Shown here: positions 1,968-61,083 of the stretch, piece by piece
Layout: the number at the start of each line of letters is the position of its first letter
How positions within the stretch are numbered: the first letter of the stretch is position 1
NCBI GenBank assembly: GCA_000146465.1
Contig: CP001947.1
Length of the DNA stretch: 64,000 nucleotides
Direction: 5' to 3' (one strand)
The notes under the pieces: generated by a model
What the model was told of the DNA's origin: nothing
Seen by the model: only the letters and a program-made list of their open reading frames with translations
Databases searched by the model: none
Made by a program: the position numbers and the translations under genes

Positions 1968-2732
1968 ATGCAAGAGAACAAGACATCAGAAGAACTCAAG
2001 AAGAGACATATTCCTCTGGATTTCATCCTAAGTATAATCAACTTTTTCGTTGCTGCTGTACAGCTGGGGTATGGAAAGTTTAAAGGGGACCAAAGTAAGG
2101 ATAGCGGGTTTAGCAAGTATTCTAAATTTATAACTGCTATAGTTCTTCTGATTCCCATATTCAAGATCTTTTACCAGCTGAGTAGATTCAGAAGAGAGTG
2201 TGGAGTCAAGAAGATGAATCGAATTAAGATTCTTTGTATGGTTGCGTATTTGCTGGTCCTTTCTGCAGCAATTGTATTGCTTTTTAAAGATTCACCCAGT
2301 TTCTCCCTGGAAACCCAAGGTATGATGGTAGCTCAAGCATCACTTTTGGGAATGGTCATTTCGTCCTTGCTGATAAATTACAAGAATCTCCAAAAAGGAA
2401 ACTACATAGACTACTTCATCATATTGGCTTCTCTTGCCTTTGCAGCCAGGCTCGTAGCTCTCTTTCCTCCTTTCAAAGTCTATGGTATAGTGGTGGCAAT
2501 ATCCGAATGGGCCTCCATAGCTATTGCACTTGTTCTCCCTGTCCTCCAAAGCCTCCTCTATCCCGAAATCATCTCCTTACCGATCTCTTCAGAGGACTTT
2601 GCTATGCTAAATGCCTTGAATGCAGCTATTCTTATTCTTGGAGCAGGGATAGTAGCATCTCCTTACATCCAGAATTGGTACTCCAAATTTAGAAAGGATG
2701 GAAATGGCACTCAAAAAATACCAGCAAAGTAG
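1968..2732 (+). CDS. Hypothetical multi-pass membrane protein
   Basis: 254-aa ORF starting at ATG with about six hydrophobic helices and no recognised family. Divergent from the AspRS gene across a 175-nt spacer. Confidence 0.45.
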   Translation: MQENKTSEELKKRHIPLDFILSIINFFVAAVQLGYGKFKGDQSKDSGFSKYSKFITAIVLLIPIFKIFYQLSRFRRECGVKKMNRIKILCMVAYLLVLSAAIVLLFKDSPSFSLETQGMMVAQASLLGMVISSLLINYKNLQKGNYIDYFIILASLAFAARLVALFPPFKVYGIVVAISEWASIAIALVLPVLQSLLYPEIISLPISSEDFAMLNALNAAILILGAGIVASPYIQNWYSKFRKDGNGTQKIPAK

Positions 2733-2903
2733 CAAGCAGCGTTCGAACACCAAGTTAAAGTCCCCAATAAAAGGCCATCATTGCAATGAATATAACGATA
2801 ATTAGACAAACTTTCGATCCAAAACATTTTAATTGGAACAAAGAACACAGTGATATCAATCGTAGAATCTGGTATAGAAACAATTTAATAAAGGACGTAC
2901 CAA

Positions 2904-3272
2904 CTATTCAATTTCTGCAAACATCTCATCAATGTCATCAATTTCTTCGTCGCATCTAATGCCACCTGCTAGATAATGAATCCTCGAGGAAAGCCCCAGG
3001 ACAATCAGTGTGTATCCAATCAGGTGTCCCTCTGGAATGTTTGATGTCCCCAGGACATAAAGTTCCTCAGCTACCCGACGTATCTTGTCTCTTTTACTTC
3101 TGGATTTGTCGAGTAGGAACAGATTCCCAAGCCTCTTTAGATGAACAAGCTCCCTAAACAGCCTTGATCCTCGATGTCCATTCTTGGACTTGTATACAAC
3201 CATCTCTAAAATTTTCAACTCTTCTGCCAGCTCCTGACTATTATCTCTTGCCTTCTGTGTCTTTAAGGCCAT
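2904..3272 (-). CDS. Hypothetical small protein with an acidic C-terminal tail
   Basis: 122-aa ORF with ATG start and acidic tail EEIDDIDEMFAEIE. Faint resemblance to RNase P/MRP Pop5-type subunits; unverified. Confidence 0.35.
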   Translation of the reverse strand: MALKTQKARDNSQELAEELKILEMVVYKSKNGHRGSRLFRELVHLKRLGNLFLLDKSRSKRDKIRRVAEELYVLGTSNIPEGHLIGYTLIVLGLSSRIHYLAGGIRCDEEIDDIDEMFAEIE

Positions 3273-9968: not shown

Positions 9969-11633
9969 TTATTCAACTTTGATCACAATACTCTTTTCTG
10001 CATTTCTATTCAGATACTCTCCACACCCCACAAATACCTTACATTCACATGCCTTCTTTAGCTCTCCAGAGTCAATGCTGAATCTAACCTTAGCCTTTTT
10101 CGAAAAGTCGTCTATAATCTGTATCTTCCCATAGATAACATTGTCTATGGTCAACATCACAATCCACTTGACAAAAAAGGATTCCTTCATGAAAGGTGCA
10201 TGCACTATAACTTCTCCTTTCTTTTCATCAAGATAGCACTCTCGCTCAAGGGTCACGTTGATTGTTGCAATGCTACCCCCGGGAATCACATACACCGCTT
10301 GCTCAGACCTCCCGTTCCGTACCCCTTCCTCCCCTTCATTCCGGGTAACAAGATTTTCTGTCTCAGACTCAGAGACATCACTAATGTCCTTGACAACCCC
10401 TGTCTCAATCACAGATGCACTGAACTCACTTATCTTAATTACAGGAATGCTTCTGTATACATTCATTCCAGACTCTAGATTGCTTCCTGAGAAGAAAGCC
10501 CTTAGACACTCCTCCTCAGACATCTTCTCCTTCCTATTCTCCTGGATAAATAAGTCTTCAAACCTCACAAAGGGAATCTCCAGCATCCAATACTTCGGAT
10601 CAAATACCGCCTGGATAATCATCGACTCAAGAACCACAAGGCTCTTCACAACATTTCCGTATCTCTTTGCAATTCCAATCGCCTTCATCCCCTCTATCAG
10701 CCGAAGAGATGCTTTTTGCACATACTCCACATCGCTCTTTGCCGCCTGTCCAGTCCTAAACAAATGATCCATCAACACAAGATATCCCTTCCCCTCCTTT
10801 CCACAGTCTCGTAGTGGATATCCAAATCCGCTTTCAATCCGTCCCCGAAGACCCTCTACATTGCTCTTCCATCCATACTCCATAAACTCAACCGACCTCG
10901 TCATAAGGGCCATCAGCTTTTCCACCACGTCATGGTTGTACTTTCCCTGGTTCATCCTGTCATCGATCTTCTCATAAAACATCTCCATCGTTCGGAAGTT
11001 CACTCCCACCCTGTTAAGGTCACGAATTTCCTTCCACTTCCTGTATGCCCACCGGGGAAGCAGTACCCCCAAAAGTAGAGAGTACAACACAAATGCGTAA
11101 ATCCCCTGGCTAACAATCATCTTAGGAATCGCTACAATCTCCCCAGTCTTCGACTCCCTGTTCAGCCACGTCTCGTATTTTTTCTTGTTGCTCACAAGCC
11201 CATACGCCCTGTTGATCATCTTCTGCTTTTCTTCATACTCTTTCCGAAGCTCCTCCGGTGCCTTTCCAAGGTTGTATTTCATCAAGAGCATTCTCAACCT
11301 CTTCTTAATCTCCTTCTCTCCCGCATCCTCGTCTATCCCAAGCACCTCCAAAGGGTTAAATCCCTTCTTGTACTCAATCTTCAAAGTTCGGATATTCCCA
11401 ACCAAATACGATATAACAATCCATATAATAATTGTAAATACCTTCCTCTTAGTCTTCCTCTTCACATTCTTGTTTTTACATCCAGGGCAAAAGCACCGTA
11501 CCCTTCGGATCGGCGTACTATCAACCAAGTCGTATGTCATATACAAAGCCACAGGAACCAGCATCGATAGCAACAAATAGCTCGAGGCAAGCCCCGACTC
11601 ATCATACTCGTAGTCATATGCCATCAAGGGCAT
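9969..11633 (-). CDS. SEC63: Sec63-like ER translocation protein: three TM segments, a degenerate J domain, and a Sec63/Brl domain
   Basis: 554 aa. Two N-terminal TM helices, a lumenal J-like segment (NPLEVLGIDEDAGEKEIKKRLRMLLMKYN, no HPD), a third TM, then a long cytosolic domain, matching Sec63 topology. Confidence 0.5.
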   Translation of the reverse strand: MPLMAYDYEYDESGLASSYLLLSMLVPVALYMTYDLVDSTPIRRVRCFCPGCKNKNVKRKTKRKVFTIIIWIVISYLVGNIRTLKIEYKKGFNPLEVLGIDEDAGEKEIKKRLRMLLMKYNLGKAPEELRKEYEEKQKMINRAYGLVSNKKKYETWLNRESKTGEIVAIPKMIVSQGIYAFVLYSLLLGVLLPRWAYRKWKEIRDLNRVGVNFRTMEMFYEKIDDRMNQGKYNHDVVEKLMALMTRSVEFMEYGWKSNVEGLRGRIESGFGYPLRDCGKEGKGYLVLMDHLFRTGQAAKSDVEYVQKASLRLIEGMKAIGIAKRYGNVVKSLVVLESMIIQAVFDPKYWMLEIPFVRFEDLFIQENRKEKMSEEECLRAFFSGSNLESGMNVYRSIPVIKISEFSASVIETGVVKDISDVSESETENLVTRNEGEEGVRNGRSEQAVYVIPGGSIATINVTLERECYLDEKKGEVIVHAPFMKESFFVKWIVMLTIDNVIYGKIQIIDDFSKKAKVRFSIDSGELKKACECKVFVGCGEYLNRNAEKSIVIKVE

Positions 11634-11691: not shown

Positions 11692-13815
11692 TCAGGGAAG
11701 GTACTCCAGATAGCCTTCATCAGCTCTACAATACTCCTTCTCAATCAGCTTCCCAATGGCCTTCATCACAGTCTTCTCGTCGTTCCCAGACTCCTCCTCG
11801 ATAATTTTGACCATCCCAGGAACTTCAATTCTCTTTCTTCTCTTCAATATTCTCATGATCCTAGCCTCCAAAACCGCATCAAAAGCCCCCACCGTTTCCA
11901 TCTCTCTCTTGGTTGTGGCTTCCCCAAACTCAATTTCAAACAGATCCACAATCTCACAGCCTTCTTCTCCCTCCATGTCTTCTCCATTTCTATCCAAGGT
12001 CAGATTCCACTCAGAGTCCATAAGACACACCCGGTCCTTGTATTTCTTTCTAATATAGCTGTACTCCTTGAGGGAAAACATCCTGTTCAGTGACAAAACC
12101 CCGTCCTTGCACCCAACAAATCCGTTCGATAGAAGATACTCAAGGTTTCCCTCAAATCCAGAACCTCCGACACATCTTCCAGCATCACTCATCTCTCTAT
12201 CAACATCCAACCACAGCATTATCAGAACCTTGTCCATGCTCATCCGGAAGTAGAACCCGTTGATCGAAAATATCATCCATGATAGATTATGGCAGCACTC
12301 CAATTCTCCCCGCGGATATTTCATCATCTTTGGCCGCGACACAATTCCCCAAATGTCCTTCAGGGGCTGGGGGAGATTCTCTCCACTTGCCCTCAGGTCG
12401 TAGAACCCCTTTGTCAGAAACCTTGTCTCTGTAATCAGTTCTATGTCTTGCCCTGCGATGCAGAAATCGTTTCGGTCGTAGTTCACCTGATTTTCATACA
12501 TTATGCTCATACTTCTGTTAATACTAGTCCCTATATATCTCTCCATCAATGAAACCAACATCCCTTCTCTTTTTTGTGACCCTCTCCATCCCAACATTCT
12601 CCTTCTTGCATCTTCTGTTATCTTTCCAACAATCCCTTCCTTGTTTGACATAAGGCTTGCAAACACAACAAGAACCTCTATCTCTCCTTCCGTCTCCTCT
12701 CCATTCCTTACTGCCCTGTCAATGTGCTTGTGAATCTCATCCTCAAACCCAAGTCTGCCCGAAATGTGAAGGTACTTCCTTATCTCCTCGTTGAGATGCA
12801 GAATCAGTTCCTCCTCATTCATAAGATTCTCCTTCATCTGCTTGCGGATCCGAAGATACTCCGTCTTCAGATCCCCCAGACTCTCAGTCCCAAGTATCTT
12901 CCTTCTCATAACTTCCTTGTACTTTTCCGCAACCCTTGCCATATACTCAGGTTCCATGAAGTGGATGATCTTTACATACAGCTTAAACTTCTCAAACTTC
13001 TCCATCCTCTGCACAACCACCTTCAAAACATCGTCAAACCTGTCCTGCACCCTACATGCAATCCCCTTGTACAGCTTGTTGTTATCTGGATCAAAAACCT
13101 TTGAAGCAATGTATATCTCCAGATACACCCTTTTTAGAACCTTGTTGATCTCTCCGTCGAAGTCCATCGATGCATGGAATCCCTCGAGGTATTTCCGCAT
13201 CATGTCCTCATACTCCAAGGATTCGTCACAGAAAAACAACATTCTCTTGAGAAGCCGGACTGTCTCCGCTAGCCGCAGGAAGTTGTAATCCTTGCATCCC
13301 CGTGAAACCCCAATCTCAAAGAACACTATGTCCTTGGCTTGTCCCACCACTCTTTCCATGTATCTTCTGTAGAAGACCGTATTCCCAAGTGTCCGGATGT
13401 CCTGGATGTGTCCATCCCTTCTCTCCAGGCTGATCCGGATAAAGTATCTTTCCAAGTACGAGTAAGCCTTGGCCACCAGATCCAAGGCATTGGAGAACTC
13501 CAGCAGCTGGCTGTGCAGGGTCTTCAGAGATGTAAAACACCTCAGCCCATCCACATACGCCAGAAGCGTCTTCTTCAAGCACTCATAAACTTTTGCTCCT
13601 CTTGTCTCAAATATCGGAGTCGCCTCTGTGCAGTGACTGTATATGGTGTCGTATACTTCCATAAAGTCCTTCGAGGAAGATGCCTTATGGTTACAAAGAA
13701 GAGACATGGTTAAATCCTCCAGCCTCTCCAACTCCTGTATACCCATTCGTGGGTATGTCCAATAAACATAAATGCTTCCTCGGACATCGAATCGAGCCGC
13801 AGGAACAAACGGCAT
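11692..13815 (-). CDS. Cullin-family scaffold protein
   Basis: 707 aa. C-terminal cullin neddylation/winged-helix signature ARIMRILKRRKRIE...IGKLIEKEYCRADEGYLEYLP. Confidence 0.7.
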   Translation of the reverse strand: MPFVPAARFDVRGSIYVYWTYPRMGIQELERLEDLTMSLLCNHKASSSKDFMEVYDTIYSHCTEATPIFETRGAKVYECLKKTLLAYVDGLRCFTSLKTLHSQLLEFSNALDLVAKAYSYLERYFIRISLERRDGHIQDIRTLGNTVFYRRYMERVVGQAKDIVFFEIGVSRGCKDYNFLRLAETVRLLKRMLFFCDESLEYEDMMRKYLEGFHASMDFDGEINKVLKRVYLEIYIASKVFDPDNNKLYKGIACRVQDRFDDVLKVVVQRMEKFEKFKLYVKIIHFMEPEYMARVAEKYKEVMRRKILGTESLGDLKTEYLRIRKQMKENLMNEEELILHLNEEIRKYLHISGRLGFEDEIHKHIDRAVRNGEETEGEIEVLVVFASLMSNKEGIVGKITEDARRRMLGWRGSQKREGMLVSLMERYIGTSINRSMSIMYENQVNYDRNDFCIAGQDIELITETRFLTKGFYDLRASGENLPQPLKDIWGIVSRPKMMKYPRGELECCHNLSWMIFSINGFYFRMSMDKVLIMLWLDVDREMSDAGRCVGGSGFEGNLEYLLSNGFVGCKDGVLSLNRMFSLKEYSYIRKKYKDRVCLMDSEWNLTLDRNGEDMEGEEGCEIVDLFEIEFGEATTKREMETVGAFDAVLEARIMRILKRRKRIEVPGMVKIIEEESGNDEKTVMKAIGKLIEKEYCRADEGYLEYLP

Positions 13816-14501: not shown

Positions 14502-14524
14502 GAAAAATTTGCAGCCCCAGGAAA
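14502..14524 (+). promoter_or_regulatory. AAATTT-like plus CCC-like upstream motif of RPL5 (GAAAAATTTGCAGCCCCAGGAAA directly before ATG)
   Basis: Read in sequence. The same module occurs upstream of RPL19, RPL14, RPS18 and RPL36 in this window. Matches the transcription signals described for microsporidian highly expressed genes. Confidence 0.5.
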
Positions 14525-15413
14525 ATGGTAAGTGGCACATGGTAATTTTAAGAGTAATGCAAAGGGGACCAGGAACTACCACAAGAACTTCCAGGTGAAG
14601 AGAAGAAGAAGACGAGAGGGCAAGACCGACTACAAGCACAGAACCAATATGATTCGACAGGATTCCAACTCATACGGGTCTGTGAAGCACAGGCTGGTTG
14701 TCCGGATTACAAAGAGCCGGGTGATTTGCCAGATCACAGGAGCCTACATGGATGGAGACCGAGTGATGGTGTATGCAGACTCGTCTGAGCTGAAGAAGTA
14801 TGGAATCAACTTTGGGCTTACAAACTACTCTGCAGCATATGCAACTGGATTCCTGATTGGAAGAAGGGCACTGACAGCATTGTCTCTGGATGGAGTATAT
14901 GGGCCCAAGGAGATTGACGGGACATACAGTATTACGGAGGATGTTGATGGAGAGAGAAAGGCGCCCAAGGTGTTCCTCGACATTGGACTTGCAAGGTCCA
15001 CAAAGGGAGCAAAGGTGTTTGGAGCAATGAAGGGAGCATCTGATGCAGGACTGAACATCCCACACAGCGAGGTGAAGTTCTATGGGTACCAAGAGGATGG
15101 GAGCTTTGATGCAAAGGAGCTGCACGACAGGATTTTTGGATACAACGTCTCTGAGTACATGCAGAAGTTGCGGGACAGTGATGAAGAGAAGTACAAGACC
15201 CAGTTTTCAGACTATATCAAGAAAGGCATCTCGGCCGAGGACATTCCACAGATCTACAAGAGTGCTCTGGACAAGATTGCATCAGACCCATCGAAGGAAG
15301 CAAGGGAAGTGAAGGACTACTCTTCGCTTAAGAAGTACCGGCCGGTTCGACTTACATATGAGGAGCGCAAGGAGAGGATACAGGCCAAGCTTTCCACGAT
15401 TGAGAGCGAATAA
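14525..15413 (+). CDS. RPL5: 60S ribosomal protein L5 (uL18); exon 1 is ATG 14525-14527, a 25-nt intron spans 14528-14552, and exon 2 is 14553-15413
   Basis: The ORF-track protein (from GTG 14532) is RPL5 ([15 protein letters not shown]...). In that frame a stop lies immediately upstream and there is no ATG. ATGGTAAGT at 14525 and TTTTAAG ending at 14552 restore the frame to give [28 protein letters not shown]. Confidence 0.85.
14528..14552 (+). other. Spliceosomal intron of RPL5, 25 nt: GTAAGTGGCACATGGTAATTTTAAG
   Basis: GTAAGT donor immediately after ATG, TAATTTT branch-like element, AG acceptor, frame preserved. Confidence 0.75.
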
Positions 15414-15511: not shown

Positions 15512-15583
15512 GACGGTGTGGCGCAATGGTAGCGCGTCGGATTCCAGTCCCGAAGGTTCTAGGTTCAAATCCTAGCTCCGTCA
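15512..15583 (+). tRNA. tRNA-Trp (anticodon CCA), 72 nt
   Basis: Hand-folded cloverleaf. D-arm GCGC/AATGGTA/GCGC, anticodon loop TTCCAGT, T-arm CTAGG/TTCAAAT/CCTAG. Near-identical to eukaryotic tRNA-Trp. Mismatches at acceptor 6:67 (U.U) and anticodon stem 31:39 (A.C). Confidence 0.7.
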
Positions 15584-22385: not shown

Positions 22386-25358
22386 ATGAACAGGAAGGAG
22401 AATAAAATAGTCACATCCAAGTATACAGCCATGACTTTTTTTCCTTTGAACATATACCATCAGTTGTCAAGGCCATCAAATCTATTTTTCCTTCTGACTC
22501 TTATTCTTCTATCAATTCCGGCGATATCTCCTTTCAGCCCATTTACCTATCTCCTGGCGTTTGTTGTTGTTGTTGGGGCATCGATGATGAAGGATGGAGT
22601 TGAGGACTACAGAAGACACAAGCAAGACAGAATCATAAACGAGAAGCCGGCCAATGTAGTTCGGAGACAAGGGGAAGATGCAAGGGTGGAGGAAATACAT
22701 GTGGAAGATCTCAGTGCTGGAGATCTTATATTTATAATGAAGGATCAGGAAGTACCTGGAGATGTGGTTTTGCTAAACAGCAGAGTAAAGACCTCTGATG
22801 GAATCAAATGCAAAAACTACTGCTTCATAGAGACAAGCAACCTAGATGGAGAAACAAATCTGAAGAAGAAGACGGCACAGCATCATATTCCGTGTGAGGA
22901 AGGAAGGACTGTGCTTGAGTGTGGAGAAGGAAAACTGGACATATGCAGTTGTGACAAATATTACATGGACAGTATATCCGAGTTCTATGTCGAGGATACG
23001 GGGGATTTACTTAACAAGTTTGAGTGCCAAGTGACCATTGGCGGGGAAAACACTCTATGCAACGAAAAGAATGTTCTTTTGAGAGGATCAAGAGTTAGGA
23101 ACACAGAACGTGTTCTTGGTATTGTAGTGTCTGTAGGGAAGCAGACGAAGCTGGGGAAAAGCCACTTCAAGGTAAAGATGAAAATATCTCTTTTTGAAAA
23201 AAGAATAGGAGACTTTATATTTGGAATATTCATGATATACCTGGGGATTCTGGCAGTGACCTCTATTCTTGGCGCTAGATTTCTTAGGAAGGATGACATC
23301 GAATATTTGTACTTGCATGAGTATCTTACCAACGACTCCCTGAAGCAAACAGGAACCAACTATATTCTGTTCAGCTACTTGATTCCTCTGTCTCTGTTTG
23401 TAACTCTTGAGGTATCCCGAATGTTCCATTCGATGTTTATATCTTATGATGACGAAATGGTTGGGAATGGAATGAAGTCCATGTGCAGAAACTCCAACAT
23501 TACAGAGGACATAGGGATGATTGAATATATCTTAACGGATAAGACCGGAACTCTCACAAAGAACTCCATGGTCTTCAAGTATTGCCACGTGTACAACTCT
23601 GAGGATCTTATTTCTCGAGAAGATTTAAAGGAGGAAAGCCTCCATGTGGAACTTGTAAACGACCTGAGTTTGGAAGCTAAGAAGAGCCGGTCGAGAATGA
23701 TGTTCATACTTGCGCTCTTGTGCTGCAATTCGATAGAGCCTCTCAACAACAATTTCGAAGGGATCTCGCAGGACGAGCTGTGTATTATTCAGGAATTAAA
23801 GAACCAGGGCTATGTGCTAGTGAAGAGAGACGAAGACTATGTTCTAGTGGAGATAAACGGAAAAAGAACCAGGTTCAACATAGTGATTTCCCTGGACTTT
23901 ACTTCTGCAAGGCAAAGGATGTCTGTGGTGATGGAGGTGTTGGGAAGGTACATTCTGTTCTGCAAGGGCTCTGACCAGAAACTTCTCGGAGACAAGAGAA
24001 TGGTTTTTGAGCAAGGAGACATGGGAACGATCAAGGCACTTATAAACAACAACTCGGAATACAGGTCCCTTGTTGTCGGATACAAAGAACTGGACAAAAA
24101 AGTAACGGATGAGCTGAAAAGGAAGTATGCTGGGGTTTCCTTGAGAGACAAGTTCCTGGAGCAGGAAAGAATCTTCGACTCGGTGGAGGAGGAGATGGTT
24201 TACTTAGGAACAACGTTTATCGAAGATGAGCTTCAGGAAGACGTAAGAAGTACTATAACTTCCCTCCGGGATGCAGGGATCAAGATATGGATGATCACAG
24301 GCGACAAGAAAGAGACTGCAATCAGCTGCTCAGAAGACTGTGGAATTGTTCAGAAGAACCATGAGGTGCAATCTCTTGCCATAGATGGTAAGGAGTTTCT
24401 GAAGAGGCTCTCAGACCCAGGGATCTTCGATTACAAGTCAATTGTGATATATCGGGCAACACCCTATCATAAGGGAAAGATAGCCGAAAAGATAGTCGAG
24501 CTTGGGAAGAACACACTTTCGATTGGTGACGGAAACAATGATGTCCCCATGCTTACAAGCTCTCATGTTGGTGTAGGGATCATGGGCAAGGAGGGCACAC
24601 AGGCAAGCTTGTCGGCAGACTTTGCCATCCCAGAGTTTAGGTTTCTAAAGAGGCTCATACTTGTCTACGGGCGCTACAACCTCATAAGATTCTCCAAGAT
24701 AACTCTGAATGCATTCTTCAAGAACATATTCTTCATCTCGATACAGTTTCTGTACAATTTCTTCAACGGATACTCGGGAAAACCCATATACAACAACTTC
24801 TTTCTGAACTATTACAATGTACTCTTTACATCCTTTGTCCCGCTGTCCATAGGACTCTTCGACAAGGACAAGCCAGAAAACTACCTAATGTCACATCCCG
24901 AGGATTACAAAAATGCAAGAAGGCTCTTTGGAAGACCTTCATTTGTGTTTGGATTTATCTACACGATCCTTCTTGGGATTGTAGTGTTTTTGCTTTCGGT
25001 CGGCACTGTCTATGTGAAGGACATGGTAAACAAGGAAGGGCTTGTCGGGGGATATATCCTCCTCACGAACTATTTTTCCATTGTTGTCTTTCTGGTTGTA
25101 CTGTCCACACAGATCCGGGAGATCTCCTTCTTTGTTGTATATTCATGGATAGCAATTGCTCTTAGTGTCATTCTTAACTTTGTAACTCTTTTTTTCATTC
25201 AGGAGTTGGATGCCACTGCAAACAATGCAGCCTTTAACCTGTTTTCTCTCCCTGTCTTCTACTTGACTATCCTCTTTGTACTCTCAGGAGTACTGCTTGT
25301 CGACTTTGTTATTATGAAGATGCTTTCTGCAGTAAAGAAGAATCGGGGATGGCCTTGA
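22386..25358 (+). CDS. P4-type ATPase, phospholipid flippase of the Drs2/Dnf family
   Basis: DKTGTLT phosphorylation site, TGDKKETA, GDGNNDVPM hinge, and the flippase-type N-terminus with 10 TM helices. The track starts at GTG 22332; first ATG is at 22386. Confidence 0.85.
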   Translation: MNRKENKIVTSKYTAMTFFPLNIYHQLSRPSNLFFLLTLILLSIPAISPFSPFTYLLAFVVVVGASMMKDGVEDYRRHKQDRIINEKPANVVRRQGEDARVEEIHVEDLSAGDLIFIMKDQEVPGDVVLLNSRVKTSDGIKCKNYCFIETSNLDGETNLKKKTAQHHIPCEEGRTVLECGEGKLDICSCDKYYMDSISEFYVEDTGDLLNKFECQVTIGGENTLCNEKNVLLRGSRVRNTERVLGIVVSVGKQTKLGKSHFKVKMKISLFEKRIGDFIFGIFMIYLGILAVTSILGARFLRKDDIEYLYLHEYLTNDSLKQTGTNYILFSYLIPLSLFVTLEVSRMFHSMFISYDDEMVGNGMKSMCRNSNITEDIGMIEYILTDKTGTLTKNSMVFKYCHVYNSEDLISREDLKEESLHVELVNDLSLEAKKSRSRMMFILALLCCNSIEPLNNNFEGISQDELCIIQELKNQGYVLVKRDEDYVLVEINGKRTRFNIVISLDFTSARQRMSVVMEVLGRYILFCKGSDQKLLGDKRMVFEQGDMGTIKALINNNSEYRSLVVGYKELDKKVTDELKRKYAGVSLRDKFLEQERIFDSVEEEMVYLGTTFIEDELQEDVRSTITSLRDAGIKIWMITGDKKETAISCSEDCGIVQKNHEVQSLAIDGKEFLKRLSDPGIFDYKSIVIYRATPYHKGKIAEKIVELGKNTLSIGDGNNDVPMLTSSHVGVGIMGKEGTQASLSADFAIPEFRFLKRLILVYGRYNLIRFSKITLNAFFKNIFFISIQFLYNFFNGYSGKPIYNNFFLNYYNVLFTSFVPLSIGLFDKDKPENYLMSHPEDYKNARRLFGRPSFVFGFIYTILLGIVVFLLSVGTVYVKDMVNKEGLVGGYILLTNYFSIVVFLVVLSTQIREISFFVVYSWIAIALSVILNFVTLFFIQELDATANNAAFNLFSLPVFYLTILFVLSGVLLVDFVIMKMLSAVKKNRGWP

Positions 25359-25681
25359 GAGGTCCTATCTACTGGTGTGTATCCTGGAGTTTGGTAGTTA
25401 AGGAAATTTTTGTATCCCCCTGGATGAAAGAAAGCGATAGACAAATATTTTTTGATGTCAATGCTATCCACAGCTCCACGGAAACAACAGAAGAGGACGA
25501 GATATCCGATATGTTTGATGAAAGGATGTTTAATGACTCCCTTGGAGGAGGAGATTTCATTAAGCTTGAAGAGGAATTAAAAAAGGTAAGGAGCATCAAG
25601 AAACAATAGGCATATTTGCATTCATACTATTCCTAAATTGTGAATAAAGGCTTAAATGCTCTCGATATTCCTTCTTCATGT

Positions 25682-26827: not shown

Positions 26828-26933
26828 TCCTCAGGGCTTTTCAACATGTCCTTTATCAAAAAGCCTCTTGTCTAGGTTGTAAGGAGAGAGGAATTGTTTA
26901 CCAGGTATAAATACACAGATCAAAACAAACAAC

Positions 26934-28745
26934 ATGGCCAAGCCATTGCAAACCAAGATCAAGAGCTCTCGCTCAAACCAACTAGCCCAGGGTGTACTTA
27001 TAGTGATTCTGTCGATTCTTCTGTTCAATAAGAAAGCATCTATAACAAGAGATGAGACCGAGTTTATAAGAAGTCTTAAATCTTATGAACAAGGGAGATT
27101 CTGTCTCTACAAGCATCTTCCATTGCCAGGCATACTCTGCCATGGCCTGAAGAAGACCTTCTCGTATATGAATGTTCCTTTGCTATCCTTGGTATTGGAA
27201 AGCCCTAGACTGGTCAGCCTTGGACTCTTTGTTGTGACCATGCTGCAGATCTCCTGGCTATCCCAAGAAACATACAATCTGGAAGCTTCATGGATGGTTT
27301 TGGTGGTCTATATGGTCAGGTTGTTGGTCAACACTCAAACCATATTCTCCACAAACGAGATGTTTTCTATATGTTTTCTTGCAGGAGGGATTGTTCAGAT
27401 AAAAAAGAAACGCTCCTTTACCTCTGGGATTCTGATTGGGCTTTCGGTGGCGTCTAGCTGGGCATCTCTGTGTATTTTGCCTCCTCTTGCAATATTTTAC
27501 GGCATTGAACTGTTCTCATTTGCAGCGAACCCTGTAAATCGGTTAAGCAAGGCTTTTCAGAAACTTTTCAAAGGAATTATTGCATTTGCAGTCATCCCAG
27601 CTTCTATATATTTCCTGTCGTTTCTTGTGCACTATTCTATCCAGAACCAACATGCAAGAGATGCCGAAAAGTTTTCTGTCGAATTCCAAGCAACACTGAA
27701 AGGAAGCATGCACGAGCCCACAGACAAGTATCTCATGGACAGAAGCATAGTTACTATCCTAAACCAAAAACACAACGTGTATTTAAATATGAAGGAAGGC
27801 ATTCCCTCATGCTCTGGACAGAAGGCGGAAGACTCCATGTGGATGATCATTAAGGTTCATTCCAACCACTCGGGGGGAGAAGTTGAGGAGGAGGGTAGAT
27901 ACATTAATCATGGAGATCTTGTGAAGATGGTGGAGTTTGGAAGTAATATGTGTCTGAGGGTTGTGAATGAAGACACAGAAGACAAGTTTAGAAAAGTTCT
28001 TGGATTTGTCCAGGAGGACAACGAAGCAAATGAAGAAGATATATGGCAGATAATCGGAGATGGACCAGTTGTCAGCAGGAACTCGTTGGTAAGATTCAGG
28101 CACTACAAAACAGCAATGGATCTGTGTATCAGGAGCCTCCGGAGATCCGAGGAAAGCGAAGATGGAGAAAACACTATTGAAAAAGGTGTGAGTGGGTCGT
28201 TGTACAGCGATAACAAGTCTAGACTGTTCTACATCAGTGATAACAGAAACCATGACTTCTTCAAGAAGAACTTTGAGGATGGAAGGCCTAAAGAAGAAGT
28301 CCTTAACTTTCCCCAAAAGGGCTTTATGTCAAAGATGTTTGAGCATCATAGGAAACTCATAAAAACGTCCTCTGGGTGGAAATGGGGTTCACCAGGTTAC
28401 TCCATGCTACATCTTCAAAGTGGGGAGAGGTATTTGATGAAACACGACATAGTTTTCAATATCTTTACAGTTGTATCTTCATTTTTATTTCCTGTAGTAC
28501 TTCTGGCCAACCACATTTCTTGGAAGAAGTACGATAAAGGTTTTAGAGCGAGAAAAGACGATTCTTTTGTATGTGTGATGTACTTCTGTGCAGTTCTTAT
28601 GGGAAGCATCCTCGGTTTTGGCCTAGCACCCTTGGAAATGTTAAGCACCTGGATGATGCTGAACCTTGTGTTCCTTCTTGGGATGAAGCCAGCCTTGATT
28701 TTCTTTTCTGTCCTCCTCTCTACTTCGATGAGAATCTTGAGATAA
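26934..28745 (+). CDS. PMT: Dolichyl-phosphate-mannose:protein O-mannosyltransferase (PMT family)
   Basis: 603 aa. N-terminal DE motif region (ITRDETEFIRSL...KHLPLPG), multiple TM helices, a central MIR-like loop (HSNHSGGEVEEEGRYINHGDLVKMVEF), and C-terminal TM helices. Confidence 0.6.
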   Translation: MAKPLQTKIKSSRSNQLAQGVLIVILSILLFNKKASITRDETEFIRSLKSYEQGRFCLYKHLPLPGILCHGLKKTFSYMNVPLLSLVLESPRLVSLGLFVVTMLQISWLSQETYNLEASWMVLVVYMVRLLVNTQTIFSTNEMFSICFLAGGIVQIKKKRSFTSGILIGLSVASSWASLCILPPLAIFYGIELFSFAANPVNRLSKAFQKLFKGIIAFAVIPASIYFLSFLVHYSIQNQHARDAEKFSVEFQATLKGSMHEPTDKYLMDRSIVTILNQKHNVYLNMKEGIPSCSGQKAEDSMWMIIKVHSNHSGGEVEEEGRYINHGDLVKMVEFGSNMCLRVVNEDTEDKFRKVLGFVQEDNEANEEDIWQIIGDGPVVSRNSLVRFRHYKTAMDLCIRSLRRSEESEDGENTIEKGVSGSLYSDNKSRLFYISDNRNHDFFKKNFEDGRPKEEVLNFPQKGFMSKMFEHHRKLIKTSSGWKWGSPGYSMLHLQSGERYLMKHDIVFNIFTVVSSFLFPVVLLANHISWKKYDKGFRARKDDSFVCVMYFCAVLMGSILGFGLAPLEMLSTWMMLNLVFLLGMKPALIFFSVLLSTSMRILR

Positions 28746-28788: not shown

Positions 28789-29580
28789 TTATTTATGAAT
28801 ACAAAATAGATGTTTCTTGGCGTTCCAGGAGTAGTCGGGTATCAAACAATTCTCTAAGATGCAGATATTTCTATTGGAATGGTTTAGCATCTCAAAGGTC
28901 TTCTCCACGACATCTCCGTAGATTTCAAGAAATTCGTTGTGCCGCACCATAATGTGTCCCTTGCTCACAGCTATCCGAATCCCTATGGGAAGGAGATCTG
29001 TCTTCCTGTCCCCAGACTCTTCATAATAAAGATTTTTTAAATTAGAAGAAATGCACTTGATCTCTCTATAAAACTCTATAGAGAAATCAAGTGCATTTGG
29101 AATATCTGTAAACACAAACAAGAAGGAGTCTCCTTCATTTCGCACCTCTAGGCCTCCATGCTCCTTACATAATCTCCTTGCAATTTCGTCGTGAAAGACA
29201 ATTGTTCTATTCATTGCATCAGGGAAACAGTTCCAAAGGTTCGAACTGTCAACAATGTCCGTTATAACCAGGATAAGGTTTCCTTGAAGAAACCTCCTGG
29301 GGATTCTTCGAGAAATGTATTTTCTGTAACAAAGCTTCCCTCCCTTCTTTCCCTGGGGAACCTCCATCTTTTTAATCTTTAAAGGCTCTTTCCCTTGGCT
29401 CCGAGAAATAAGCATGCATTTCACTCCGTCGATTATCCCGACCTTGAAGCCACAGAACACCGACCCGAGTATCCATACCGGATTAATTGCCACCCATATC
29501 GCACATGCAATCATCTGTGTATGCATCCTAAAACTATATGCCACTAGCTGAAGAATAAGCGTCATGTTGTTCTTCAACAT
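28789..29580 (-). CDS. Membrane-anchored protein with a class III adenylate-cyclase catalytic domain of fungal Cyr1 type, at minimal length
   Basis: 263 aa. Two N-terminal TM helices, then LILVITDIVDSSNLWNCFPDAMNRTIVFHDEIARRL..GGLEVRNEGDSFLFVF and GIRIAVSKGHIMV..YGDVVEKT. These match the metal-binding D..D and the core of the Cyr1 catalytic domain. The N in the conserved (V/I)N motif is replaced by E. Confidence 0.65.
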   Translation of the reverse strand: MLKNNMTLILQLVAYSFRMHTQMIACAIWVAINPVWILGSVFCGFKVGIIDGVKCMLISRSQGKEPLKIKKMEVPQGKKGGKLCYRKYISRRIPRRFLQGNLILVITDIVDSSNLWNCFPDAMNRTIVFHDEIARRLCKEHGGLEVRNEGDSFLFVFTDIPNALDFSIEFYREIKCISSNLKNLYYEESGDRKTDLLPIGIRIAVSKGHIMVRHNEFLEIYGDVVEKTFEMLNHSNRNICILENCLIPDYSWNAKKHLFCIHK

Positions 29581-40641: not shown

Positions 40642-40802
40642 GTTTATACTCCACACTTCTTTATTTATAGACTTTCATGTTTCATCCTTATCACTCCTCA
40701 TCAGTTTTCGTCCCTTGGATATTTACTTGACAGAGCTCTTGAAAGCCGGATATCCAGTCATACTCGCAAGGAATAAATATAGCTGGTTGGCAGACCCCAA
40801 GG

Positions 40803-41801: not shown

Positions 41802-42263
41802 TTATTTCTTTCTTGAAACACCCATGGACTTCCCACGTCTTCCATTTGACTTGGTCCTTTGTCCACGGACCTTGAGGCCAACATCGAGTCTGCATGCTCT
41901 GATGCGCTTGTTCTTCTTTCCTCTTTCAATCATCATTCTTAGATCTGCATCGAGTTTTGTACCTATGAGATGGGATGTTGTCCCGTCAACAGGATCCTTC
42001 TGATGGTTTAGATAAGATTCCGGAATTCCTAGGCTTGCAGGGTCGAGAATTGCATCTGAAATCCTCTTCATCTCCTCCTCAGACATTTCTCCGGCACGCC
42101 TCTTCAAATCAATCCCAAGGCGCTTGCATATGGCTGTCGAGATTCTTATTCCCACACCTCTGATCTTTGTAAGAGCAAAAGCAATTCTCTTTGTCCCGTC
42201 AATGTTGGTGTTGTGGATACGAACGATGTACTGGACGTCAGCCGGGTCGTAGACATAGTTCAT
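41802..42263 (-). CDS. RPS18: 40S ribosomal protein S18 (uS13)
   Basis: 153 aa. VRIHNTNIDGTKRIAFALTKIRGVGIRIS...RACRLDVGLKVRGQRTKSNGRRGKSMGVSRKK. Confidence 0.9.
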   Translation of the reverse strand: MNYVYDPADVQYIVRIHNTNIDGTKRIAFALTKIRGVGIRISTAICKRLGIDLKRRAGEMSEEEMKRISDAILDPASLGIPESYLNHQKDPVDGTTSHLIGTKLDADLRMMIERGKKNKRIRACRLDVGLKVRGQRTKSNGRRGKSMGVSRKK

Positions 42264-42282
42264 TTAAGGGATTAAATTTTTC
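42264..42282 (-). promoter_or_regulatory. AAATTT/CCC upstream module of RPS18 (GAAAAATTTAATCCCTTAA before ATG)
   Basis: Read in sequence. Confidence 0.45.
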
Positions 42283-42358
42283 ACGGTTCAAAATGAAGGC
42301 AGACTTTCAAGATGGAAAGACAACAGGACGTAGTAACAGATAAAACCAAAAGTATACT

Positions 42359-42643
42359 TTATTCCTCCAGAAGCATCTTTGTCAACTTCTTCATCCTCTT
42401 TCCTGCACGCTTGTGAGACCCCAATCTCTTTCGGAGAATCCTCTGTGCCTTGCTATTGTTCTTTGCCTCAATAAGCGAAATAACTTTCTTCTCAAGTGGA
42501 GAATAACCGCATAACTCCTCTGCAACTGAGGCTGCAAACATGCGTATCTTTCCAGACTCCTCGCTGGGCTTCTTGGCTTCTCTCTTCACATCGGGCCTCT
42601 TTACTGGATAACGTACTCGAACTTTCTTGAGAGCGTTCTTCAT
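42359..42643 (-). CDS. RPL36: 60S ribosomal protein L36e
   Basis: The ORF track gives a 197-aa ORF. Only the C-terminal 94 aa, from the ATG at 42643 (CAT at 42641-42643 confirmed), match L36e (..SPLEKKVISLIEAKNNSKAQRILRKRLGSHKRAGKRMKKL). Confidence 0.8.
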   Translation of the reverse strand: MKNALKKVRVRYPVKRPDVKREAKKPSEESGKIRMFAASVAEELCGYSPLEKKVISLIEAKNNSKAQRILRKRLGSHKRAGKRMKKLTKMLLEE

Positions 42644-42647
42644 TGCA

Positions 42648-42664
42648 GGGCCGAGAAAAATTTT
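42648..42664 (-). promoter_or_regulatory. AAATTT/CCC upstream module of RPL36 (AAAATTTTTCTCGGCCCTGCA before ATG)
   Basis: Read in sequence. Confidence 0.45.
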
Positions 42665-45415: not shown

Positions 45416-45637
45416 TCAAGGCTTGCTTGTATTCTCTTGCTTCTTGATCTCTCTCTGCTTCTGCCGCTCCCTTAAGAAGTTCCTCTTCTTTGTCTTTAAG
45501 ATCTTGATCTTGCTAAGGAGGCTCTTTCTTTCCTCCTGCTTCTGCTGCTTTATTCTCAGCCTCTGCTTGAAGGAGAGGACTGTATTGGGATCTTTTTGTT
45601 TCTTCTCCTTCCATACCTTCAAGTAAGTTTTGCTCAT
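45416..45637 (-). CDS. Small lysine-rich coiled-coil protein, 74 aa, possibly Cgr1-like nucleolar protein
   Basis: MSKTYLKVWKEKKQKDPNTVLSFKQRLRIKQQKQEERK... from the ATG at 45637. The longer track ORF (to 45868) is antisense to the Sm-like gene. Confidence 0.4.
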   Translation of the reverse strand: MSKTYLKVWKEKKQKDPNTVLSFKQRLRIKQQKQEERKSLLSKIKILKTKKRNFLRERQKQREIKKQENTSKP

Positions 45638-49140: not shown

Positions 49141-49236
49141 AAATAAAGAGTTGTAATAGTTTTTAGCTAAGCCTAAGGGTCTTTGTCTTTATGCATCCAA
49201 GTAATAAAATTTATAGACGAAAATTCTAGCCCTGAG

Positions 49237-50346
49237 ATGGTTGACCGAAAGGTGCTGTTTGCAAGGTCTTCGAAGTCAAATAACTTGAGCATGGGAATAG
49301 TTGGACTTCCAAATGTAGGGAAGTCAACTCTTTTCAACTTTCTTACAAGGAACAATGTTCCTGCGGAAAATTACCCGTTCTGCACGATTGATCCTTCGGA
49401 AGGTCGTGTGGAGATTCAGGACGAGAGAGTGGACTTTCTGGAAAAGAAGTACTCTCCTCAAAATGTTGTGAAGGCATATTTAAGTATAACAGACATAGCC
49501 GGACTTGTCAAGGGAGCTAGTACTGGAGTTGGGCTTGGAAATCATTTTCTGGACAACATCCGAAGTGTGGATGGAATATTTCATGTTGTAAGATGCTTTG
49601 AAGATACAGGAGTGGCTCATTTTGAGGATGGGGTTGATCCAATAAGAGACATAGAAATAGTCAACGAGGAGCTGAGGCTCAAGGACTATGAGACTATGGT
49701 TCGCCATGAAGAGAAAATGTCGAAGGATCTGAAGTCGAAACCTTCTGACAAAAAGCTGAAGGATCAGGTTTTGCTGGTCAGGAGGCTTGTGGAGATATTG
49801 AAGAGCGATTGGGTAAACAAGCATTCGTTCAACGAAGAAGAGATTGGATACATAAGCACTCTGAATCTGCTCACAGTGAAGAATGTAGTGTATCTAGCCA
49901 ATATCAGTGAGAAGGATTATGAAATGCGGCGGGCAAACAAGCACCTACGAGCGGTTATGAAGTATTCTGAGGATGTTATTGTGTTTAGTGCTACATATGA
50001 GGCCAACCATGAATCCAAGGTATTTTTGAACAAGCTTGTAAAGAAGGGATATGAGTCTTTAGACCTAATAAACTTCTTTACTGTGGGAAAGGACGAGGTC
50101 AGGAGCTGGACGATAAGAAGAGGAATAAATGCACCTTCTGCAGGGGCAGTAATCCACACGGACTTCAAGAAATATTTTATTATGGCCGAGGTGATGTCTT
50201 TTGAAGATTTCAAGACATATGGAGGAGAGGCTGAGGTCAAGAAGGCTGGAAAGTACCACCAGAGAGGGAAAACATACATTGTTAATGACGGAGACATAAT
50301 TCTCTTCAAGGTCAATCCACCCAAGTCCACAGGAAAGAAGAAATGA
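49237..50346 (+). CDS. OLA1: Obg-like ATPase 1 (OLA1/YchF)
   Basis: G1 GIVGLPNVGKSTLFN, a YchF-type G domain, and C-terminal TGS and ThrRS-like regions. The track starts at TTG 49183; first ATG is at 49237. Confidence 0.85.
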   Translation: MVDRKVLFARSSKSNNLSMGIVGLPNVGKSTLFNFLTRNNVPAENYPFCTIDPSEGRVEIQDERVDFLEKKYSPQNVVKAYLSITDIAGLVKGASTGVGLGNHFLDNIRSVDGIFHVVRCFEDTGVAHFEDGVDPIRDIEIVNEELRLKDYETMVRHEEKMSKDLKSKPSDKKLKDQVLLVRRLVEILKSDWVNKHSFNEEEIGYISTLNLLTVKNVVYLANISEKDYEMRRANKHLRAVMKYSEDVIVFSATYEANHESKVFLNKLVKKGYESLDLINFFTVGKDEVRSWTIRRGINAPSAGAVIHTDFKKYFIMAEVMSFEDFKTYGGEAEVKKAGKYHQRGKTYIVNDGDIILFKVNPPKSTGKKK

Positions 50347-59749: not shown

Positions 59750-59822
59750 GGCCTCATAGCTCAATGGTTAGAGTGTCGGCCTACGGAGCCGAAGGTTGAG
59801 GGTTCGAGTCCCTCTGGGGTCG
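59750..59822 (+). tRNA. tRNA-Arg (anticodon ACG), 73 nt
   Basis: Hand-folded: acceptor GGCCTCA/TGGGGTC, D-arm GCTC/AATGGTTA/GAGT, anticodon stem TCGGC/GCCGA with loop CTACGGA, T-arm GAGGG/TTCGAGT/CCCTC, discriminator G. Confidence 0.85.
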
Positions 59823-60404
59823 GCTGTCTTTTGTGCTTCTTTTTTTCTTCCTAGACTTTTTCATCCACATCTCTAGTGCATTGCTTCTGTATCTGCCCTG
59901 CACATCTTCATCCAACGAGTTCCACATCTTAATGAACATACGAACGTTTTCTTCTGGAGACACATTTATGTCGCCACAGATGTCGAAGAGTTCGTTTACA
60001 AAGAAAAGATATCCTGAACACTCCCATCGCTGTATATCCCGTATTTTAACATATTTTCTTAGCTTCTTTATCGTGTTTGTATCATTGACTAAATTGCCGT
60101 CGTCACAGCCATCCAACTCATTGGCTTCCTCAAGATCTTTATTGCATTTTTCCACATACATATTCCTCTCCTCGTCCGGCATTTCCTTCCATACAGCCAT
60201 CATATTCAAGGCAGTATCGACACAACTTGTGTATTTGTAATTATTACTTTGGAAAAAGTCCCTGGCAAAGACCGTGAATGGAGATCTCTGCTTGGTAGGC
60301 ATTGAATACAAGGATTCAAAAAATTTCATCTCGGGGGTATGTATCTTCGAAAAATACACCAAAGGAATTAGATAGTACAGTAGAGGCCAATAAATAGAGT
60401 CCAT
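59781..60404 (-). CDS. HMG-box protein (two divergent HMG boxes, basic tail). Its 3' end overlaps tRNA-Arg in antisense.
   Basis: Box-like segments KQRSPFTVFARDFF...MMAVWKEMPDEERNMY and KKLRKYVKIRD...IKMWNSLDEDVQGRY, with tail KKSRKKKRSTKD. The last 14 codons are the reverse complement of the tRNA. An alternative start ATG lies at 60329. Confidence 0.5.
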   Translation of the reverse strand: MDSIYWPLLYYLIPLVYFSKIHTPEMKFFESLYSMPTKQRSPFTVFARDFFQSNNYKYTSCVDTALNMMAVWKEMPDEERNMYVEKCNKDLEEANELDGCDDGNLVNDTNTIKKLRKYVKIRDIQRWECSGYLFFVNELFDICGDINVSPEENVRMFIKMWNSLDEDVQGRYRSNALEMWMKKSRKKKRSTKDSRPQRDSNPQPSAP

Positions 60405-60411
60405 TTAATCC

Positions 60412-60957
60412 CTATTTTCCCACCAGGCCCGAATTCACATTCTTTTCTTCAGCAATCTTGTTATAGACGGCCTTCTCGTCGTCGCTGAGTTCTTTCCATC
60501 TCTTTGCAACAGCAGACGTAGTCTCCATCATCGTGAAGCTGGGATTCTCTTCAGAAACAGCTTTTCGGACTGCCTTAAAGAACTCGTTGTACCCAGTTAC
60601 TTTCTTGGCTCCTTTTTTCTTTCTTCCAGCTGCTGCTTCATCAGCTGCAACCTTCTCAAGATAATCCTGGTACTCATCGCTCTTCTTGTATTCCTCAACC
60701 TTTGCCAGATATAGCTCTCTCTCCTTGTTTGAAATCTTGTTGTATTCCTCTCTTTCCTCATCAGAGAGCTTCTTCCACATCTCAGAAATAGATCTTCCTT
60801 GGTCTGCTACGGGTAGCTTGCTCAGTTCCTCATTCTTCTTCCTTTGCTCCTGCCCAAAAATAAAGTACCCCGACATAGGCTTCTTCGGTGCATTGGGGTC
60901 CTTGCGTTTTTTTACTGCCGCTTTACTCCTTGGCTTTTTGCTCTTCTCAGTTACCAT
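60412..60957 (-). CDS. HMGB-type protein with two HMG boxes
   Basis: 181 aa. KDPNAPKKPMSGYFIFGQEQRKK...SEMWKKLSDEEREEYNK and KKVTGYNEFFKAVRK...AKRWKELSDDEKAVYNK. Confidence 0.75.
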   Translation of the reverse strand: MVTEKSKKPRSKAAVKKRKDPNAPKKPMSGYFIFGQEQRKKNEELSKLPVADQGRSISEMWKKLSDEEREEYNKISNKERELYLAKVEEYKKSDEYQDYLEKVAADEAAAGRKKKGAKKVTGYNEFFKAVRKAVSEENPSFTMMETTSAVAKRWKELSDDEKAVYNKIAEEKNVNSGLVGK

Positions 60958-61083
60958 AATGATGGGGGTAGAAGAAATAGCTTATAAAATTTTAATAAGA
61001 ACCAGCCCAGTCGATATTTTACAGTTAAATCGCCCTTCTAACCTCTTATCATATGCAGTAGATACCAATTGATAGAGTGTCTT

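Follow-up and report, generated by a model that had tools for sequence, protein, structure and literature searches.

A published AAATTT-plus-CCC signal directly upstream of ribosomal-protein genes in a 64-kb window of Encephalitozoon intestinalis chromosome 6

We found that a short two-part module, an AAATTT-like block followed by a CCC triplet, stands directly before the start codons of ribosomal-protein genes in the 64-kb stretch of DNA that we analysed (the window), and that it is a known microsporidian ribosomal-gene transcription signal, already published for the genus and the phylum. Within the window it is confined to gene starts and over-represented before ribosomal-protein genes, and its sequence is conserved in six species, which supports an earlier note on this DNA that had proposed a shared module near the ATG. 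The association with ribosomal-protein genes is strong but not exclusive, since one of these genes, msL2, has an interrupted block and no CCC, whereas a non-ribosomal gene, Eint_060865, has the full module. What we add to the published picture is limited to the promoter class of eL14, of msL2 (as a variant) and of Eint_060865.

Exact protein matches, carrying locus tags of the form Eint_06xxxx, identify the window as part of chromosome 6 of the microsporidian Encephalitozoon intestinalis ATCC 50506. Its coding fraction is about 90%; the 64 kb contain about 56 genes that begin with ATG, and the spacers between them measure tens of bases. We scanned the window ORFs against Pfam for gene identities, which supported the ribosomal proteins L5e, L19e, S13/S18 and L36e as well as TFIIB. 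Altogether six ribosomal-protein genes are present: RPL5, RPL19, RPS18, RPL36, eL14 and msL2. The Pfam scan of window ORFs yielded no further ribosomal-protein gene, and a search of the ORFs lacking a Pfam hit against PDB chains for extra ribosomal proteins gained msL2 alone. Elsewhere in the window, a tRNA-Arg(ACG) gene (59750-59822, +) overlaps, in antisense, the final 42 nt of a 207-aa ORF (59781-60404, -). The first-ATG products of two ORFs, 9969-11633 (-) and 11692-13815 (-), have no exact match in the protein collection, so their deposited starts probably differ from the first ATG.

The five strings quoted in the earlier note each occur exactly once in the window, on the genes named and right before the ATG. 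Counting from the A of the ATG (14525, +, for RPL5; 40068, 42263, 42643 and 53014, all -, for RPL19, RPS18, RPL36 and eL14), the A-run/T-run block lies within -22 to -10 and the CCC within -10 to -5, which bears out the placing of the module no more than 25 nt from the ATG. The block begins 17-22 nt upstream of the ATG; 1-5 nt separate it from the CCC and 4-6 nt separate the CCC from the ATG, and a T directly follows the triplet (CCCT) in four of the five genes. The interval marked in the earlier note, 42264-42664, takes in the RPS18 and RPL36 modules only. The note had assigned the module to "all five ribosomal-protein genes"; the five that it named do carry it, but the window has six, and msL2 shows only a variant. 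An AAATTT-like A3+T3+ block at -22 to -10 with a downstream CCC is thus found in 5 of 6 ribosomal-protein genes, with msL2 as the exception.

RPL5 (uL18; Pfam Ribosomal_L5e, E = 5e-56) has its quoted string at 14502-14518 (+) and its module at 14503-14527 (+), composed of AAAAATTT at 14503-14510, CCCC at 14515-14518 and the ATG at 14525-14527. A 25-nt intron (14528-14552, +), deduced from GTAAGT...AG and the reading frame of the ORF 14532-15413, follows the start codon, and the CDS ends at 15413. A tRNA-Trp gene (15512-15583, +) lies within the spacer 3' of RPL5. For RPL19 (eL19; Pfam Ribosomal_L19e_C, E = 9e-32; CDS end 39524), the string is at 40088-40074 (-) and the module at 40087-40066 (-), with AAAAATTT at 40087-40080, CCC at 40076-40074 and the ATG at 40068-40066. 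Its 29-nt intron (40066-40038, -) opens with the last base of the start codon, the G, which divides the codon AT|G and leaves exon 1 as 'AT' alone. The RPS18 gene (uS13; Pfam Ribosomal_S13, E = 4e-35; CDS 41802-42263) carries its string at 42282-42268 (-) and its module at 42281-42261 (-), where AAAAATTT occupies 42281-42274, CCC 42270-42268 and the ATG 42263-42261; this module comes after the stop codon of RPL36, which is encoded on the same strand. RPL36 (eL36; Pfam Ribosomal_L36e, E = 1e-11; CDS 42359-42643, 94 aa), whose product is exactly the protein entry '60S ribosomal protein L36', differs in its block, AAAATTTTT at 42664-42656; CCC follows at 42650-42648 and the ATG at 42643-42641 (string 42664-42648, module 42664-42641, all -). 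The RPL36 module is situated in a 52-bp divergent spacer that is common to Eint_061060 (ATG 42696, +).

The fifth gene, quoted as RPL14, is eL14 (Eint_061145), with its string at 53032-53020 (-) and its module at 53031-53012 (-), made up of AAAAATTT at 53031-53024, CCC at 53022-53020 and the ATG at 53014-53012. The unspliced ORF has no Pfam match. Removal of a 30-nt intron (53011-52982, -) gives a 106-aa product (CDS end 52664) that matches 7QEP chain M4 (ECU06_1215, eL14; E = 4.7e-53) and also eL14 of the microsporidian ribosomes 6rm3 and 6zu5, and whose exact sequence is that of Eint_061145. RPL5, RPL19 and eL14 therefore all have introns of 25-30 nt that begin at or inside the start codon. 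Reportedly, eL14 was long thought to be lost and was recognised only through cryo-EM in 2022.

Counts of the motif in the window say little by themselves. The bare word AAAATTT is not enriched there (26 observed against 26.4 expected), and the loose composite AAATTT-N0-10-CCC-N0-10-ATG is only marginally enriched, with 6 matches against 2.2 +/- 1.8 expected and at least 6 in 7 of 100 shuffles. The case for the module consequently rests on position and conservation. Over both strands, each of the 6 composite matches ends in a gene-start ATG, a class comprising 2.2% of the 2526 ATGs in the window (P ~1e-10), and the composite is carried by 5/6 ribosomal-protein genes versus 1/50 others (Fisher 9.3e-6). 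The CCC element is much more widespread: 36 of the 56 genes (64%) have it in the 15 nt before the ATG, versus 8.9% of 2469 non-start ATGs (P = 2e-23), and in window genes its first C is mostly at -12 to -3, with a peak at -7/-8. Upstream sequences also confirm that the TFIIB, UCH, Sm and cyclase genes have the CCC block only, as the earlier note had described.

We compared loci by synteny around TFIIB in E. cuniculi, E. hellem, E. romaleae, Ordospora colligata and O. pajunii, together with E. intestinalis. The RPL19, RPS18 and RPL36 modules are almost invariant across these six Encephalitozoon/Ordospora species, whereas the distal upstream sequence of RPL19 and RPS18 is barely alignable between species. 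Invariant columns number 18/25 in the proximal part versus 6/83 in the distal part for RPL19, and 15/25 versus 6/79 for RPS18. The contrast is weaker for RPL36 (15/25 versus 11/28), as the spacer there is short and also belongs to the divergent Eint_061060. In the TFIIB-region loci of the five relatives, the pattern matches the three ribosomal-protein starts exclusively (15/15), and across all orthologous loci examined its matches are at the expected starts only (18/18). The comparison also bears on gene annotation: the deposited call of O. pajunii RPL19 (2509-3053, -) starts at 3009 and lacks the first exon, while the module and a GTAAGT intron indicate that the gene truly begins 44 nt further upstream, with its ATG at 3053. 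A common third element 5' of the A/T block was considered and rejected, as the 5-10 nt conserved there differ gene by gene (TTTTGA in RPS18, CAAAAG in RPL19 and GTAGAATT in RPL36).

The sixth ribosomal-protein gene, msL2 (Eint_061065), is a 73-aa ORF at 45416-45637 (-) with its ATG at 45637-45635, and in our PDB-chain search it matches 7QEP chain MS (ECU06_1135; E = 2.7e-26). This chain is msL2/ECU06_1135, an Encephalitozoon/Ordospora-specific ribosomal protein found by cryo-EM in 2022 (PMC8807834). The variant module of msL2 (45664-45635, -) consists of an interrupted A/T palindrome, AAAAATATTTTT, at 45664-45653 (-27 to -16), then CAAGGAACCGCAGCA, then the ATG. Neither a CCC nor a GGG triplet is present upstream of the msL2 ATG, which has GGAACC instead. 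The stretch GATAAAAATATTTTTCnAGGAACCG upstream of this gene is kept in four Encephalitozoon species.

Only one non-ribosomal gene in the window has the complete module, namely Eint_060865, which encodes a 61-aa acidic 'uncharacterized protein'. Its module spans 25404-25426 (+), with AAATTTTT at 25404-25411, CCCCC at 25416-25420 and the ATG at 25424-25426, and its CDS ends at 25609. A first-ATG call would start the gene at 25349, but the motif and the deposited annotation both give 25424. The orthologues ECU06_0935, E. hellem KMI_03g05370 and one in a further genome retain the module (four genomes in total). Relatives of Eint_060865 were found only within Encephalitozoon, and the protein has no match in Pfam, NCBIfam or PDB. 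A resemblance to DSS1/SEM1 was not supported: Pfam gave no match at E <= 10, NCBIfam gave none, and a four-sequence Eint_060865 profile searched against PDB returned an insignificant match to an unrelated chain (E = 0.024).

Beyond the five quoted genes, an A3+T3+ block occurs within 30 nt upstream in 2 of 51 ATG-ORFs, with Eint_060865 as a third when its start is taken as 25424. Two other genes have CCC near the ATG and an AAAATTT(T) block farther out, at -36 to -29 in the gene for an HMG-box protein (ATG 60957, -; region 60957-60993) and at -31 to -25 in the gene for the YchF/OLA1 GTPase (ATG 49237, +; region 49206-49237). These blocks form a looser module, which would fit the published link to high expression if the two genes are highly expressed. 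Separately, the Sec63/DnaJ gene has AAATTTTT at about -28 and no CCC before its first ATG. The 263-aa ORF 28789-29580 (-), which has no Pfam match, shows AAAAAGCCCCC-ATG at its start, and its product is weakly similar to the catalytic domains of trypanosome receptor-type adenylate cyclases (E about 1e-3).

The module has been described before. Peyretaillade et al. (2009, BMC Genomics 10:607) reported that every E. cuniculi ribosomal-protein gene is preceded by an AAATTT-like motif and then a CCC-like one, as are the orthologues in four other microsporidia; their tables extend to more distant genera (PMC2803860). In their Additional file 3, strings are given for E. cuniculi L5, L19, S18 and L36, with L5 entered as 'AAAATTTTTCAGCCCCGAGAAA (intron)', L19 likewise marked '(intron)', and S18 entered as AAAAATTTAATCCCCTAA (PMC2803860). 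The L19, S18 and L36 strings of that supplement are identical to those that we extracted from the E. cuniculi locus. Missing from the list are eL14 and msL2, which were not recognised as ribosomal proteins in 2009 (PMC2803860); eL14 nevertheless carries the module in full, together with a 5' intron. The published account links the AAATTT-like signal to highly expressed genes, notes that long T-runs replace the block in some species, and states that the block, being palindromic, can act for both genes of a divergent pair (PMC2803860), which is the situation of RPL36 and Eint_061060 in their common spacer. The CCC element was first noted in Nosema ceranae by Cornman et al. 2009, as cited in PMC2803860, and CCC/GGG is also found at the start sites of non-coding RNA genes (PMC5499648). 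These signals have since been applied to small-gene finding and, routinely, to start-codon placement, E. intestinalis included (PMC4589312, PMC10815200). No newer genome-wide mapping of start sites for microsporidia was found in the literature searched.

Very probably, the module works as a two-part proximal transcription signal of microsporidian genes. Its first part would be a CCC (rarely GGG) triplet 3-12 nt 5' of the ATG in most genes, which would mark the start of the transcript and thereby yield near-leaderless mRNAs. This reading takes its start sites from 5' RACE in E. cuniculi, where leaders are 1-7 nt long, and 2 nt in the case of RPL27A (PMC2803860); the very short 5' UTRs suggested in the earlier note agree with these values, and leaders in the window would be comparably short by analogy with that species. 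The second part would be the A-run/T-run AAATTT-like block, 1-5 nt 5' of the CCC and largely confined to ribosomal-protein genes and a few others, presumably highly expressed. The most likely role of this block is to bring in or place the RNA polymerase II machinery, which would provide strong, co-ordinated expression of the ribosomal-protein regulon. We infer a promoter or regulatory function for the A/T block, which would set strength or co-regulation. The label 'core promoter', used in the earlier note, is one that published work has inferred for the module.

We weighed this reading against several others. The chance that the module is an accident, a by-product of base composition or a set of 3'-end signals of upstream genes in short spacers is negligible: the marginal composite count, the bare word at its expected frequency and the position of the RPS18 module behind the RPL36 stop codon would be in keeping with it, but the six of six matches on gene-start ATGs, the 18/18 result in orthologous loci, the conservation in six species with diverging flanks, and the same outcome genome-wide in five species (PMC2803860) speak against chance, and the RPL36 module in its divergent spacer has no upstream 3' end to signal. 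It is very improbable that the module is instead a translation-initiation context, that is, a Kozak-like or ribosome-loading leader. Such a role would explain the fixed, very short distance to the ATG and the enrichment on genes with heavily translated products, but with RACE 5' ends only 1-7 nt before the ATG (PMC2803860) the A/T block, and usually the CCC, would be outside the mRNA, and CCC/GGG also precedes the starts of untranslated non-coding RNA genes (PMC5499648). The two remaining alternatives concern the A/T block.

Poly(dA:dT) tracts exclude nucleosomes in yeast promoters, and the block could likewise be structural, a rigid A-tract/T-tract that keeps nucleosomes out of the tiny spacer while the CCC alone selects the start. 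We regard this as unlikely. Block length and the A:T split vary between genes and species (AAAAATTT, AAAATTTTT, AAAAAATTT, AAAATTTT), the msL2 block is interrupted yet composed of A and T only, and long T-runs are found in some species (PMC2803860); such latitude would be expected of a structural element more than of a strict binding site. On the other hand, the A-run precedes the T-run on the coding strand without exception, the gap between block and CCC is tightly limited (1-5 nt), and flanking bases are invariant across species, for example in TGAAAA(A/T)TTT(A/G)ATCCC of RPS18. Fixed polarity, spacing and flanks suggest readout at the level of individual bases. It is possible, if doubtful, that in these genes TBP binds the block as a TATA box within a standard pre-initiation complex; a TATA-like role was proposed by the 2009 authors (PMC2803860), the block is A/T-rich and located upstream of the start site where a core element is expected, and TFIIB is encoded in the same window. 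However, blocks such as AAAAATTT or AAAATTTTT lack a TA step and do not match the consensus TATAWAWR, and they start at -17 to -22, whereas canonical TATAAATA/AATAAATA boxes before ERV1, TFIIB and the gene at 26934 (about 40662-40669, -; 40772-40780, +; 26906-26913, +) begin at -28 to -31 relative to the ATG. Of these boxes, the ones before ERV1 and TFIIB are conserved in the other species compared. Given leaders of 1-7 nt, as in E. cuniculi, the block would be about one helical turn too near the start site. It is thus not obviously a displaced TATA box, being about 10 bp nearer to the ATG than the boxes of neighbouring genes.

With leaders of a few nucleotides, the module allows real start codons and very small first exons to be located in microsporidian genomes, a use already made of it in annotation pipelines. 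Here it moved the start of O. pajunii RPL19 and favoured ATG 25424 over 25349 in Eint_060865. It is also one of the few instances in which a promoter common to a whole regulon can be recognised in a genome that is among the smallest of any eukaryote. A bolder proposal, to which we give little credence as a joint claim, is that the full module dependably flags parts of the Encephalitozoon translation machinery that have so far escaped recognition, and that the block defines a second, non-TATA class of core promoter. The former idea comes from the module before eL14, the variant before the lineage-specific msL2 and the full module before Eint_060865/ECU06_0935; the latter comes from the position of the block, which is nearer to the ATG, by about one helical turn, than genuine TATA boxes in the vicinity. 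If the flag reading is true, Eint_060865/ECU06_0935 could be a new ribosome-associated or otherwise very abundant factor.

Compared with known systems, the block resembles a canonical TATA box in being an A/T-rich element upstream of the start site, with genuine examples in the same window, but it differs in lacking the TATAWAWR consensus and in its closer position. Ribosomal-protein promoters in other organisms use the TCT/5'TOP initiator (animals), the Homol-D box (fission yeast), or Rap1/Fhl1 with poly(dA:dT) (budding yeast). The module is like these regulons in having a dedicated common architecture that replaces or supplements TATA, with a pyrimidine block near the start and A/T tracts, and unlike them in its sequences and in its far shorter distances. 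Unlike 5'TOP mRNAs, the transcripts would have no TOP-like pyrimidine leader, if they begin downstream of the CCC as published for E. cuniculi (PMC2803860). With the signal of Peyretaillade et al. (2009), the module of the window agrees in both elements, their order, their distance to the ATG and the association with ribosomal-protein genes, and 4/5 window instances are direct orthologues of strings in Additional file 3. The two differ in nothing of kind, only in the species, E. intestinalis rather than E. cuniculi, and in eL14 and msL2, which the 2009 list does not contain.
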